Assembly (NCBI GenBank): GCA_045535075.1
Contig: JAZSKX010000018.1
Span: 288,001 to 352,000, forward strand
DNA: 64,000 nt
Source of the DNA: Candidatus Spyradenecus sp.
GTDB lineage: Bacteria > Verrucomicrobiota > Verrucomicrobiia > Opitutales > UBA953
Direction of reading: 5' to 3'
The number at the start of each line of letters is the position of its first letter. The first letter of the stretch is position 1. This document shows, one piece after another, positions 24,001 through 30,000 of the stretch. A program made the position numbers.

Positions 24001-27000
24001 CACGCCGGAACCGGACGCGTCTGATTTTCTTCCACTCCGCGAGTTGCGAGTTGTTTTGAGGAAGTACGATTGCGGACTTCAATCTTGTCGCCGACGCTGC
24101 AGCAGAAGCTCGGAATGTCGACTTTATGTCCGTTTACGCAGATATGTCCGTGACCGACCAACTGGCGAGCGGCACGGCGCGTATTCGCAAAGCCCAAGAG
24201 ATAGACGACGCTATCCAGGCGCATTTCAAGGAGCGTAAGGAAGTTTTCACCGACAACGCCACCCATGCGCTTTGCGCGGGCGTACGTAAGACGGAACTGC
24301 TTTTCGCCGAGACCATACATGAAGCGGAGCTTCTGCTTCTCATTCAGGCCGATGGAATATTCCGAAGCCTTACGACGAAGCGTGGGGCCGTGAACTCCCG
24401 GAGGATACGGCTTGCGTTCCTCTGCCTTACAGGTCGGAAGAATATTCTGACCAAAACGGCGATTTAACTTACTGGTGGGTCCTGTGTATCGTGACATTTC
24501 TGTATTATTTTTGGCGGCTTAATCGACTGCCCGGGTTGCCATTGCCGGACAGGAATAGAAAAGAGCGAGAAAGCCTGCAAAAACCGAAAAGGAATTTGCA
24601 GGCAAAAATCCGTTATTCCAATTAAACGCGACGGCGCTTCGGCGGACGGCATCCGTTATGCGGAACCGGCGTAACGTCCGTAATCGAAAGAACATTCAAT
24701 CCAAGCGATTGAAGTGCGCGGATCGCAGAGTCGCGTCCCATTCCCGGACCGCGAACTTTGACGATAACGTCTTTCAAACCATGCGACATCGCAACGCGAG
24801 CGGCATCCTGACAAACAACCTGCGCGGCAAAAGCCGTAGACTTACGGGAACCGCGGAAATTGCATTGCCCGGACGAAGAGCGGGAAATCACGTTCCCGTT
24901 CGTGTCGCAAAAAGTAATTTTCGTATTATTGAAAGTTGCAAGAATATTGCAGACACCGGTCGTAATATTCTTAGAGCCTTTGGCTCGGCGCACCTTGATT
25001 TCTTCCAAACCTTCGGCAAGCAAATCTTTCGCCGTGATTTCTTTCTTTTCAGGAGCTGCGGGAGCAACTTCTTTCTTGACTTCTTCTTGACTCATTGAAA
25101 GTAGCTTTCTGTTAATTATTTGGAAACGACACCAATCGTCTTGCGCGCGCCCTTACGGGTACGAGCATTGGTCTTCGTGCGCTGTCCGCGAACCGGAAGA
25201 CCGCGGAAATGGCGGAGTCCGCGATAGGATTTGATGGACTGCAAGCGCTTGACGTTCCCGCTGATTTCGCGGCGAAGGTCGCCTTCGCATTTGTAGCCTC
25301 GTTCAACAATATAGTTGACGATTTTGTTGAGCTGTTCTTCCGTAAGCTTGTCGGAACGAAGCGCGGGATCGATCCCGAGAGCGTTCACGATCTCCGTGGC
25401 ACGGGTCGGGCCGATACCATAGATATAGCGCAACGCGAATTCGACGCGTTTGTTATTCGGAATGTCTACACCAAGTAAGCGTGGCATGGATTTTTATGTT
25501 TTATCGTTTGTTTAGAAAGGGAAAAGTTTGAAAGGATGTCAAAACTTCTCGTAATTTGAAAGAAAAAAAATAAAAAACGGAAAGAAGCCTCAGAGTGTTG
25601 TAAGAATTTCCGGTTCATCCTCCGTGATTAGAATTGTGTGTTCTGCGTGTGCAGCGGGCTTTCGGTCTCGTGTTAAAACCGTCCATCCGTCTTCTGCGAT
25701 ATCAATAAGATGGGTTCCCATGTTAATCATAGGCTCAATAGCTAAAGTCATCCCCGGGCGTAGCTTCTCTCCTTTGTGCGGCTTTCCGTAGTTTGGCACT
25801 TGCGGATCTTCGTGCATAGAACGCCCTACTCCATGACCGGTAAATTCTCTTACAATTCCGTAACCGTACGGTTTCACAAACTGTTCGATCGCATGAGAAA
25901 TATCTCCGATCCTGTTCCCGCGCTTTGCAGCCGCAATTCCGGCGTAAAGAGCCTTTTCCGTTACTTCGCAAAGTTTTCGGACAGGTTCCGCAACCGGTTC
26001 AATCAAAACCGTTCGCGTATTATCTCCGACAAAGCCTTTGTAGCGAGTAACGACATCCAGCGAAACAATATCCCCCGGCTGAATCGTCCGACGCATCGTC
26101 CCGATCCCGTGAATAACCTCTTCATTCACGGAAACACAAATATAGCCCGGGAAAACAAGATTGCCGTACCGGTAATTGTGGCTTGTGCTTTCCGCTCCAA
26201 GTTCCTCAATTACTTTGCGTGCGAAATTATCGATATCGTAAGTTGTCATTCCCGCTTCGACGAATTTAGCCGTGCGGTCAAGCACCTGCGCAGCGACCTT
26301 GCAGGCTTCACGCATCAGAGAAATTTCGGTTGTAGAAAGCGGAATGATCATTTTGTAAAAGAACAGAAACGACGATTCGCAATATTACGCAGCAGCAGGG
26401 ACAAGCGTGTAAGCTTGCCATGCGTTAATCCCGTAAGCGATCAGTCCGAGAATGAAAATTCCGAGCAAAACGTAGGTCAAACGCCCAATTCCCTTTTCCT
26501 CGCCGACTTCTGCAATACGGCGGGAACGAGACGGGAGCGGTGTCGCTACGCCTCCGATTCGGCTTTTCTTAAGAAAACCTTCATAATGACGTTGCAGGAG
26601 CAAAGATTCCACCTGGCGCATCGTATCCAAAACAACCCCGACAGCGATAAGTCCGCTCGTCCCTCCGATAACCCGTGCCAAACGCGGGAAAAGGTTGAGA
26701 TTGTAGATAAAATAATCCGGAATTAATGCAATCACCACGAGGAAAATACCTCCGGCAAATGTAAGACGATTCATGACGAACTCAAGATACGCAGCCGTAT
26801 GCTGCCCCGGACGGATTCCCGGAATATAGCCGTTGTTCTTCTTCAAATCGTCCGCGACCTGAATCGGTTTAAACATCACCGAAACCCAAAAGAAGCTGAA
26901 TGTAAAAACAAAAGCTCCCATCAGGAAATAATATACGCTCTGTCCCGGCATCACGTAAGAACTCCAGGGCAGAAGGAAGCTCAATGCCGGAGTCGAAGTT

Positions 27001-30000
27001 CCGAGCCACGTCAGCGGCATCGAAAGGAAGGATAAAATTGCTCCGGCAAAAATAACCGGCATAACTCCCGCGTAGTTAACTTTCATCGGAAGGTACGTCG
27101 TCTGACCGCCGTACATCTTACGCCCGACAACACGTTTTGCGTATTGAACGGGAATCTTGCGGACAGCTTGCGTAATCATAACCAGCAATGCACATCCGAC
27201 CACGAAGAGGGCAATCATCCCTACAAATTTCAGGAATGTATACTCCGACGCTCCGGTTCCATCCACGACCGTTTCACCGAAAAGGCCCGAAATAAAAGGA
27301 GAAATCGCTTGCGGCATGTCCGCAACAATCCCGAGAACAATGAGGATTGAAGCTCCGTTTCCAATACCCCGCTGCGTAATTTGCTCTCCAAGCCAAGTCA
27401 TAATTACCGCTCCCGCCGTCAGGATGATTGTTCCCATAACGACAAAAAGCGTTTTATCGCATACGAGAATACTACCCGTAAACTCGTTGATCCCGAGTGC
27501 CCGACCGACCGTTTCCGGATTGGAAAGCATGTTCGTGATCATAAGCCCTTGGATAAGAGCAATTACGATTGTCATGTAGCGCGTGTATTGCGCAATCTTC
27601 TGCTGTCCGTTCTCTTCCTGACGCAGACGAGCCAAGCTCGGAAGCACGGCCCCCATTAACTGCATGATAATCGACGCACTGATGTAAGGCATAATCCCAA
27701 GCGCAAAAATTGCGCCCTTCAGCATTGCCCCACCCGTGAACGCATTATACAAGCCGACGACTCCGTTCCCCTTCTGAAGAAGTTGATCGACGAAGCTCGT
27801 AAGCATCGTCAAATCAATCCCCGGAAGCGGGAGATTGCCACCGATACGGGAGATAAAAATCAACCCGAGCGTAACAATAATCCGATTCCGGAGTTCGGGA
27901 ACGCGCCAGCAATTAAAGAAGGCCGAAAACATTCGTACGCGTCATTCTGCCGCCGAATTATTCAGCGGCGGCTTCTTCTACAGAGCAGGAAAGGACTTCG
28001 ACTTTCCCGCCGGCAGCTTCAATCTTAGCCTTAGCGGAATCGGAGAATTTTTGTGCCGAAACCGTAACGGCTTTCGAGATTTCGCCCATGCCAAGCACTT
28101 TAATGAAAAGCTCGTTTGCACGAACCAGCCCGGCACGAACCATCGCATCACGATCAATTACATCGCCTTCAATTTTCGCGAGCTGACCGACATTGACAAC
28201 CGCAAATTCAACGCGGTTGACATTACGGAAGCCGCGATGCGGAAGCTTACGATAAAGCGGCATCTGACCACCTTCAAAGCCGGGGCGAACACCTCCGCCG
28301 GAACGGGCTTTCATCCCTTTGTGCCCGCGACCGGAAGTTTTTCCGTGTCCGCTTCCCATCCCGCAACCGAGACGTTTATGACGGTGCGTCGAACCTTCAA
28401 TTTTAGGAAGAGTGTGAAGTTTCATTTTAACTATGAACTAAATATATTATTAATTACGAGCGCGAAGCACGAATTTGTTCGAGCGTGCGCAACTTGCAAA
28501 GCCCGTCAAGCGTCGCCTTCACGAGAGCACCCGGATTATTGGAACCAAGCGACTTCGAAAGTACGTCTTTGACTCCCGCAACTTCGAGCACCGCGCGAAC
28601 TCCGCCGCCGGCAATAACACCGGTACCGGGTGATGCCGGGCGAAGAAGAACCTGACCTCCGTCATGAGAACCAAGGACTTCGTGCGGAATCGTATTGTTA
28701 CGGAGCTGAACCGGGATCAAATTCTTGTGAGCACGTTCCGTGCCCTTACGAATTGCATCCGGAACTTCTTTCGCCTTACCGTAACCGATGCCGACATTTC
28801 CTTTCCCGTCACCGGAAACGACCAATGCAGCAAAGCTGAAGCGACGTCCGCCCTTAACAACCTTAGCACAGCGATTAATGTGGACAACCTTGTCGATGTA
28901 CTCGGAAGCTTCCGCTTCCTGGCGAGGAGCACGACGATCATTACGACGACCGCCCTGACGACCGTTCCCGCGACCGCGGGGTGCCTGTTGGATGGGAGCT
29001 ACAGCTTCCGCCGCCGGCGTTTCAACCGGAGCAACTGTATTTTCAGGAGCTGAAATTTCTTGCGACATGGTAAATCCTTAGAATTGAAGTCCTGCTTCGC
29101 GGAGAGCTTCCGCGAATGCCTTGACGGTTCCGTGATAGCGACGACCCGCACGGTCAAAAACGATGGCGTTAACACCGGCCGCTTTCGCCTTTTCCCCAAA
29201 AATCTTTCCGAAAGCTTTTGCACCCGCAACATTCGGAAGAATTTTTTGGGCTCGCAAATCTTTTTGAGTCGTAGAGCCGCCAAGAATGGTGCGCCCTTCG
29301 CCATCGACAATAACTTGCGCGTGAATGTGGAGATTCGTGAATTTCACAACCAAGCGCGGACGTTCCGCCGTGCCCACAACCGTCTTACGAATACGATAGC
29401 GACGGCGTTGCAAAAGTTTAATTTTTCTGTCGTTCTTTTTCATTTATCAGAAAACGTTAGAGATTATGCGGTTTTCTTGCCTTCCTTGCGGAGGACGAAT
29501 TCACCGACGATACGGACGCCCTTGCCCTTGTACGGTTCAACCGGTTTGAATGCCTTGATGTCAGCAGCAACCTGTCCGACGACGCGCTTGTCAGCTCCGG
29601 AAATGTCAATCTTGACGCCATCCGTAATGACGACCTTAATCCCTGCGGGAACGTCGTAAATAATCGGATGGGATTGCCCGAGAGCAAGATCCAACTTGTT
29701 CCCGCTGAGCACGGCTTTGAAGCCGACCCCTTGAATTTCAAGTTGTTTCGAATAACCTTCCGTAACACCCTTAACCATATTGTTAACGATGGCACGAGCC
29801 GTCCCGTGCATAGCACCGGCAAAGCGCGTATCATTCAACGGGTTGACGTGAACAAGATTTTCTTCGACTTTGATTTCAACACAATCCGCAAACGTTTGCG
29901 AAAGTTTACCCTTGGGACCTTCAACGCTAACGGTGTTCCCGTCAACAGCAACTTTCACGCCCGCGGGAATTTGAACAGCGATTTTACCAATTCGACTCAT

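Follow-up and report, generated by a model that had tools for sequence, protein, structure and literature searches.

The window analysed here is a stretch of 64,000 nucleotides from a genome of Candidatus Spyradenecus sp. (class Verrucomicrobiia, order Opitutales; contig JAZSKX010000018.1, positions 288,001–352,000), and all coordinates below count from its first letter. The 515-residue SecY reported in the first-pass annotation at 26385..27932 was confirmed as a single open reading frame on the minus strand, flanked by rplO and map. The features of the locus are as follows.

27958..28425, minus strand: rplO (L15), upstream neighbour of secY
26385..27932, minus strand: secY, 515 residues, one open reading frame in the S10-spc-alpha cluster, between rplO and map
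26559..27932, minus strand: canonical ten-helix SecY core and basic cytoplasmic tail, residues 1–458 (solved-chain alignment, 5aww_Y fold match)
26928..26930, minus strand: Y335, at the periplasmic start of TM8, which tracks the tail (residue counts with and without tail)
26592..26594, minus strand: Q447, at the cytoplasmic end of TM10, which tracks the tail imperfectly (residue frequencies)
26490..26558, minus strand: linker, residues 459–481, basic then acidic, predicted to be disordered (pLDDT below 50 at 461–478; dN/dS about 0.13)
26424..26489, minus strand: TM11, an extra hydrophobic helix, residues 482–503, predicted N-in/C-out (hydropathy, AlphaFold2, charge bias, dN/dS)
26445..26447, minus strand: G496, the sole near-invariant residue of TM11 (458 of 468 aligned tails; weighted 90%)
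26388..26423, minus strand: C-terminal end, residues 504–515, predicted periplasmic; a few to about 100 residues long in relatives
25590..26351, minus strand: map (M24 peptidase), downstream neighbour, 33 nt past the secY stop

When the protein was compared with family models, Pfam SecY (PF00344) matched residues 75–438 (330.8 bits against a cut-off of 32.2) and TIGR00967 matched residues 15–450 (356.4 against 253.6). The accessory SecY2 models cross-matched as members of the fold family, but an accessory SecY2 was rejected, the scores being far under the cut-offs (154.8 vs 353 for PRK12417; 139.2 vs 249.6 for TIGR02920). Ten hydrophobic windows were found by hydropathy within residues 1–440, in agreement with the ten-helix clam-shell fold, and a model of residues 1–450 matched 5aww_Y (VIA Z 34.4, rmsd 2.7, 419 aligned). 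The gene has the place in the spc cluster, after rplO, that is expected of a SecY, and secE and secG are present in the genome. Judged by sequence, the SecY of the window is an ordinary housekeeping, ribosomal-operon SecY with an added C-terminal helix, and its family membership suggests that it would translocate proteins with SecA and ribosomes. The canonical SecYEG SecY (5AWW, 3DIN, 5GAE, 6R7L) has the same fold and operon position, with separate secE and secG, but differs by the 11th helix. The whole tail is spanned without an indel by a contig of another public run (26360–28412). A contig of a metatranscriptome library covers 26370–26822 with no difference, though it may stem from DNA carry-over; a second library leaves a gap over the SecY tail.

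SecY, one of the most highly conserved membrane proteins, has been described as having ten helices and a C terminus that faces the cytoplasm. The short basic cytoplasmic end that is usual for SecY, though not a curated criterion, is not seen here: 67 residues follow H449, compared with 10–27 in 174 records labelled as outside Verrucomicrobiota. About 55 residues are thereby added beyond the canonical SecY, and no solved SecY chain covers them, the sequence alignments ending at residue 439–461 and the structural ones at 442–462. The earlier observation that SecY continues into a further hydrophobic helix is borne out by hydropathy and by these alignments, which end before the tail. TM11 consists of about 22 apolar residues without a break; its 19-residue window 485–503 has a hydropathy of 1.99, the fifth highest value of 11 hydrophobic windows in this SecY. 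The range of 1.8–2.9 first given for such tails proved too narrow, as 97 tails have maxima between 1.56 and 3.27. AlphaFold2 placed a helix at 482–513 (pLDDT 87–88 at 491–510) after the disordered linker. There are 6–7 Lys/Arg residues ahead of the helix and fewer than one behind it (positive-inside), and the dN/dS of TM11, about 0.12, indicates purifying selection. As a prediction, these four lines of evidence support the 11th transmembrane segment and outward C terminus first proposed, and TM11 very probably spans the inner membrane, with its start inside and its end outside. With that topology, the basic tail would be a tethered cytoplasmic loop and the C terminus would be periplasmic.

The distribution of the tail was examined in 62 genomes of the same order, of which 49 were read, 12 more align through the tail and one gave no match. 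Every Opitutales-order genome read has the tail (50/50, being the window's genome and 49/49 others), as first noted. Outside this order, 60 genomes of the class, hand-picked and mostly one per family, were read, and 26 of them have an ordinary basic tail of 15–21 residues. By family, 21 of 41 carry the tail and 20 do not, with no mixed family. The tail-less groups include Limisphaerales/Pedosphaera; the relatives of one tail-less protein were short in 80 of 80 cases, and 15 of these carry Limisphaerales or Pedosphaera in their titles. In other classes, the tail occurred in none of the 20 genomes read (200 sampled), so its absence there, claimed at the outset, held. The claim that all Verrucomicrobiia share it did not, given the tail-less families and the 80 short relatives. 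A single clade of tail bearers was rejected on a 22-gene ribosomal-protein tree, in a run that included the lone tail-bearing lineage G380 (log-likelihood 289 lower; AU test, p-AU 6e-62), and the ribosomal-protein trees require at least three gains or losses of the tail. With the trait patchy within the class and its bearers rejected as one clade, the tail is a marker of some orders and not, as had been proposed, of the class Verrucomicrobiia. Since tail-less lineages exist within the class, TM11 is non-essential at class level.

The sequence of TM11 is far more variable than that of the core helices (mean entropy 2.4 vs 0.6–1.8), with one conserved face made up of L485, I492, G496, and A499; the periodicity peak at 102 degrees is marginal (p = 0.07). 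A single conserved face on an otherwise variable helix fits the expectation for a peripheral helix. Within the core, the residue at 335 follows the tail most closely: Tyr is present in 106 of 112 tail-bearing proteins vs 3 of 59 tail-less phylum members, counts in which kin are not independent, and in 8 of 80 further tail-less (Limisphaerales-type) loci. Y335 shows the second largest conservation gain among core positions. It is replaced in four of five tail-less lineages of the class, and is retained in tail-less G301 and in one genome of another class. Gln at 447 reaches 100% and 98% in the two tail clades and 5% in tail-less class members, and the position is Met in G380. No broad conservation gain linked to the tail was found in TM6, TM8, and TM9.

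We favour, at a probability of roughly 0.45 for the explanation as a whole, a role for TM11 as a peripheral accessory helix near the periplasmic start of TM8. In the sequence, the basic tail of SecY runs on, by way of a flexible linker some 20 residues long, to the conserved TM11. The Leu/Ile/Gly face of this helix may pack, with moderate confidence, on the exterior of SecY's C-terminal half, the periplasmic end of TM11 lying near Y335. From there, outside the pore, TM11 would brace and tune the TM7–TM8 side of the lateral gate. PMC6776908 describes SecY with 10 helices and puts TMH1/2 of E. coli SecE next to TMH8 and the 7/8 helix of SecY, with gate modulation proposed. It is because this accessory pair touches SecY where the tail-linked Y335 lies that TM11 would be expected to brace the TM7–TM8 gate side, although the sharing of the site is our inference. 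Both are lineage-restricted, peripheral, and dispensable extra helices; unlike the SecE pair, TM11 is a single helix on SecY's own C terminus, and no sequence similarity between them was shown. When the C-terminal half was modelled alone, TM11 had a pLDDT of 94/90, level with TM7–TM8 (87–94) and above TM6, TM9, and TM10, but a free helix can also score high. None of 50 fold matches of that model extends to TM11. Mean-field coupling, with a shallow effective depth of 77–181, gave TM6 and not TM8 as the best partner, and an off-register control was nearly equal (4.85 vs 4.52).

A bolder reading takes TM11 for a surrogate signal helix built into the channel, which would move into the lateral gate when substrate is absent, like RAMP4 on Sec61. 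In Akkermansia, Opitutales, Chthoniobacterales, and related orders, the translocon would then have a covalently attached gate regulator, a bacterial counterpart of RAMP4 gained near the class root and lost several times, with SecY's 11th helix moving into the lateral gate or up against it. The layout is suggestive, as RAMP4/SERP1, according to PMC11186639, likewise has a basic cytosolic segment, a flexible linker, and a tail-anchored helix with a conserved glycine, and the predicted TM11 is such an N-in helix. The length of the linker suffices for reaching the gate, as 27–40 residues lie between H449 and the hydrophobic window in the genome loci sampled, and Y335 sits on a gate helix. Nevertheless, both the insertion itself and this evolutionary account of it appear unlikely. 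The half of TM11 that follows the glycine (497–502) is fully apolar in the weighted profile, whereas that of RAMP4 is amphipathic after the kink, and RAMP4 is a separate, ribosome-binding protein described there as eukaryote-specific, while TM11 is fused. TM2b, TM3, and TM7 show no outstanding tail-linked change, the tail profile search found no sequence link to RAMP4, and the genes for a PpiD-like protein and long-form YidC are retained. Helices of PpiD and YidC are said to enter the lateral gate in E. coli. If the gate-regulator reading were true, the lineages with and without TM11 would form a natural on/off series in which the action of accessory helices at the gate could be tested.

Docking of another membrane partner (YidC, SecDF-YajC, PpiD-YfgM, a second SecY or a clade-specific protein) would also suit a conserved glycine face, which can serve any helix–helix contact, and few core positions track the tail. 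Irrespective of whether the tail is present, SecE was found in 69 of 71 genomes, SecG in 70 of 71, YajC in 72 of 72, the YidC periplasmic domain in 69 of 73, and SurA_N_3 in 72 of 73; a separate secG was present in all 35 tail-bearing genomes searched. The window's genome gave no SurA_N_3 or SurA_N_2 match, but a PpiD-like gene was found in it by tblastn (E 1e-33); for YfgM-type TPR_21, sought in five genomes, the outcome in the window's genome was ambiguous. None of the partners tested (SecE, SecG, YajC, YidC, PpiD-like) comes and goes with the tail, and Y335, Q447, and L390 indicate contacts inside SecY; docking of such a partner is improbable. The retention of these same five genes led to rejection of the proposal that TM11 replaces a lost subunit. 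The SecE of clade B has its own hinge insert, which shows the outer surface of the channel to be under remodelling, as docking would have it. Among the 48 SecEs parsed of 51, an extra N-terminal helix and the SecY tail occur in all four combinations, so there is no simple trade of one for the other.

TM11 may also be a plain anchor that keeps the basic tail close to the membrane, where SecA or ribosomes could bind it, or that withdraws the free C terminus from cytoplasmic proteases such as FtsH. The high variability of TM11, the conserved length of the linker, the repeated absence of the tail among relatives, and the tolerance of up to about 100 extra residues at the periplasmic end would all agree with this. 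We hold it to be doubtful, since an anchor requires neither a near-invariant glycine nor a one-sided stripe, and since Y335, a core residue on the far periplasmic side, changes with the tail.

The tail as a fused small translocon subunit (SecE, or SecG/Sec61-beta type) or other small gene is largely refuted and has very little chance of being right, even though an N-in/C-out topology would suit SecE or Sec61-beta. With E values up to 1 allowed, the tail matches no family of Pfam or NCBIfam, PF00344 being the only Pfam match of the window's SecY; PF00584 is not matched, and the Trp-Pro motif that precedes the TM helix and is invariant in 25 SecEs is absent from the tail alignment. Separate secE and secG are also present. 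A tail profile run against 1.84 billion representatives gave 29 matches, of which 28 were SecY tails or pieces and one was an unrelated repeat protein, so no stand-alone homolog was found in that set; apart from a cluster of SecY fragments, at 0.76, the ESM Atlas yielded nothing. Of 47 tail-less loci scanned, 46 lack a small membrane ORF downstream of secY, save for out-of-frame hydrophobic stretches inside map. It is equally improbable that TM11 is re-entrant or surface-bound: many tails do stop within about five residues of the helix, often with one or two basic residues, but the unbroken apolar run, whose hydropathy falls among the values of the ten real helices, the strong charge asymmetry, and the long polar extensions beyond the helix in loci L002 and L005 speak against it.

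No description of an 11-helix SecY was found in the literature searched, and the available parts of 10.1101/2025.04.25.650208, PMC7203096, and PMC8675477 have no bearing on one. A conserved extra helix in several large Verrucomicrobia groups, but not in Limisphaerales, implies that part of the class has a rebuilt form of a core machine. A stable 11-helix SecY in abundant soil, marine, and gut bacteria would mean that the core channel can acquire a fused accessory helix. Other accessory translocon helices are TMH1/2 of E. coli SecE, RAMP4, and the PpiD anchor. As an accessory helix, TM11 would be fixed at 1:1 stoichiometry, and sister lineages with and without it make direct tests possible. With the predicted topology, C-terminal tags placed on SecY in tail-bearing organisms would face the periplasm.

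The secY gene (26385–27932, minus strand) is a single open frame of 515 codons in the S10-spc-alpha cluster, with rplO and map as neighbours. Its product is the housekeeping SecY: PF00344 spans residues 75–438, TIGR00967 scored above its cut-off, and the SecY2 models stayed below theirs. The 17 solved SecY sequences matched stop at window SecY residue 439–461. Beyond the core (residues 1–458) the protein continues with a linker (459–481) and a further hydrophobic segment, TM11 (482–503), together referred to as the tail. A contig from another public run covered the entire tail with no indel; hence, the tail is not an assembly slip. 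In the window map directly follows secY and rplO directly follows rpsE, and no fitting ORF for adk, rpmD, infA, or rpmJ was found at the usual places (25487–25590, 26351–26385, and 28425–28454). The adk gene is still present after secY in several tail-less relatives.

An AlphaFold2 model of the window SecY was built from 89 tail-bearing sequences (pTM 0.79). It matched 5aww_Y with Z 34.4 and an rmsd of 2.7 over 419 residues, and none of the matches listed in the fold search extended beyond residue 462. After the usual basic tail, residues 461–478 had pLDDT under 50, followed by a helix at 482–513 with pLDDT 87–88 at 491–510. Hydropathy was 1.99 at residues 485–503, ranking fifth among the 11 windows of SecY (range 1.56–2.69); helices were numbered by us from hydropathy and the model, by analogy with the standard numbering. 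Lys and Arg averaged 6–7 from the end of TM10 to TM11 and below 1 beyond it, an asymmetry that gives N-in/C-out by the positive-inside rule. The first-pass annotation had placed the C terminus outside after an extra helix; hydropathy, model, and charge asymmetry all support this, and the topology is well predicted. Some proteins run further: TM11 is followed in one record (L005:2905–3333) by an Ala/Pro/Lys-rich extension of about 100 residues with a His-rich stretch at its end, and in another (L002:2884–3120) by about 30 Ala/Pro-rich residues.

We read 130 loci, hand-picked from two samples, 301 genomes of the phylum and 141 of the class: the genome's own, 49 of 62 from the same order, 60 from other orders of the class, and 20 of 200 from other classes. 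The tail was present in all 50 Opitutales genomes read, in 34 of the 60 from other orders (21 of 41 families, none of them mixed), and in 0 of the 20 from other classes. The eleventh helix is real, but its earlier attribution to all Verrucomicrobiia fails, as 20 of those 41 families lack it. Bearers include Opitutaceae, Puniceicoccales, Prosthecobacter, Verrucomicrobiaceae, Akkermansiaceae, Spartobacteria, and Chthoniobacterales; Limisphaerales form a large tail-less group. Relatives of one tail-less SecY (L257) were short in 80 of 80 cases, 15 being titled Limisphaerales or Pedosphaera and one Kiritimatiellae. Tail-selecting searches returned proteins with the tail in 360 of 360 cases (356, plus four checked separately). 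Among the matches listed, which are near relatives, the tail was missing from the 174 named records labelled outside Verrucomicrobiota, with one exception, L001. This record, titled Candidatus Spyradenecus (Lentisphaeria at NCBI), is 96% identical to the window SecY and nested inside the Opitutales clade. Record labels conflict with the SecY for L001 and also for L510, L551, L560, L561, L563, L216, and L255. A short-tailed SecY of Limisphaerales type occurs in several records under the title Akkermansia muciniphila or Bifidobacteriaceae. In two genomes, G276 (L122) and G291 (L150), the secY frames have only 423 and 441 codons, owing to an upstream break or frameshift, and the tail is intact.

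The tail is beyond chance, real, and under selection. In 24 disjoint close pairs dN/dS was about 0.06 for the core, 0.13 for the linker, and 0.12 for TM11, rough values since synonymous sites were partly saturated. TM11 is overall far more variable than every core helix. G496 is conserved in 458 of 468 aligned tails and shares one face with L485, I492, and A499 (periodicity peaks at 102 degrees; p = 0.07 by shuffling).

In a SecY tree made without the tail columns, the tail fell in two well-supported clades (Opitutales plus family f65; Verrucomicrobiales, Chthoniobacterales, and allies) and in one lone lineage, G380. Species trees were computed from 22 ribosomal-cluster proteins of 41 genomes. 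A single clade of all tail bearers was ruled out on these proteins (p-AU 6e-62). Four tail changes were required with FastTree and three with IQ-TREE, the minimum being three on both trees. The trees differ in the placement of Opitutales; both pair tail-bearing G380 with tail-less genome G301 and group the tail-less families f62/f68 with the second tail clade. On profile comparison the two clades appear to have homologous tails: HH-align gave a probability of 92.7 across 38 columns, and when tails were scored on the profile of the opposite clade, 43% and 53% of them passed the 95th percentile set by 1061 decoy membrane segments. The G380 tail scored 16.5 bits on the second-clade profile and 1.1 on the first. 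The favoured history is a single gain close to the class root followed by several losses, with up to three separate gains as a less likely alternative.

That the tail substitutes for a lost subunit was ruled out, the subunit genes being kept in tail-bearing and tail-less genomes alike: SecE was found in 69 of 71, SecG in 70 of 71 (G213 has two SecG matches), and YajC in 72 of 72. The YidC periplasmic domain (69/73) and SurA_N_3-type genes (72/73) likewise occur on both sides of the trait, and the window's genome encodes secE, secG, and a PpiD-like gene. When a profile built from 79 tails was searched against 1.84 billion representatives, 29 matches came back: 28 were tails, fragments, or chimeras of SecY, and the other was an unrelated repeat protein; no stand-alone homolog was found there, though so weak a profile could miss short families.

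Many Verrucomicrobiia SecEs (L295–L322, L323–L341) have two helices, through one added N-terminal hydrophobic helix. Among 51 SecEs surveyed (three not parsed), all 11 from Limisphaerales-type genomes carry it, as do those of f62 and G380 and 11 of the 18 from the second clade (a twelfth match falls before the start); the 6 Opitutales-clade, 4 f67, and 7 other-class genomes lack it. Accessory helices are thus gained and lost on SecY and SecE alike within this class, with no strict trade. In all 19 SecEs of L323–L341 (second tail clade and tail-less f62), about 10 inserted residues follow the Trp-Pro motif, so that Pfam matches positions 19–55 only.

Few core positions of SecY change with the tail. 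At Y335, where TM8 begins on the periplasmic side, Tyr was seen in 106 of 112 proteins with the tail, in 3 of 59 phylum members without it, and in 8 of 80 additional tail-less loci; other residues stand there in f62/f68, f66/f73, f67, and most Limisphaerales, and tail-less G301 retains the Tyr. Q447 and L390 track the tail less cleanly. G31 ranks first on the entropy list; it is also Gly outside the phylum and hence not tail-specific. No patch of gained conservation was seen on TM6, TM8, or TM9. A shallow coupling analysis favoured TM6 (C247–F493, A256–G481), with a control nearly as high. Y335 aligns to V318 of chain 5abb_A, which we take to be E. coli SecY. In a model of residues 230–515 TM11 scored 94/90, on par with TM7–TM8; no fold match took in TM11. 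According to PMC6776908, the two accessory helices of SecE in E. coli reach TMH8 and the 7/8 helix of SecY at the periplasmic side and may modulate the gate. From the tracking of Y335, these SecE contacts, and the C-half model score, we propose that TM11 would act as an accessory helix at the periphery of the C-half of SecY. The coupling preference for TM6, the absence of a patch of gained conservation, and the lack of a fold match that includes TM11 count against this proposal.

No description of an 11-helix SecY was found in the literature searched, which leaves most subscription journals outside; automated topology annotations in databases may show it. SecY with the tail is an apparently undescribed variant of a textbook machine, present in part of the class.

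Three further genes of the cluster region were recorded.
34062–34412, minus strand: ORF of 116 aa with a signal-peptide-like start, between rpsS and rplV; no Pfam match
18382–20037 and 20056–22005, minus strand: DUF3857/DUF3858 gene pair immediately after rplQ, one with a transglutaminase-like core

Of 37 loci in which rpsS and rplV could both be read, 25 have a gap of at least 300 nt between them, most of these holding an ORF; in the five Limisphaerales-type loci the gap is 16–24 nt. These ORFs, with Pfam matches below threshold only, encode 112–130 aa in Opitutales and elsewhere mostly 230–320 aa with a coiled-coil part. The ORF in the window is a putative exported-protein gene within the S10 operon, unlinked to the SecY tail.
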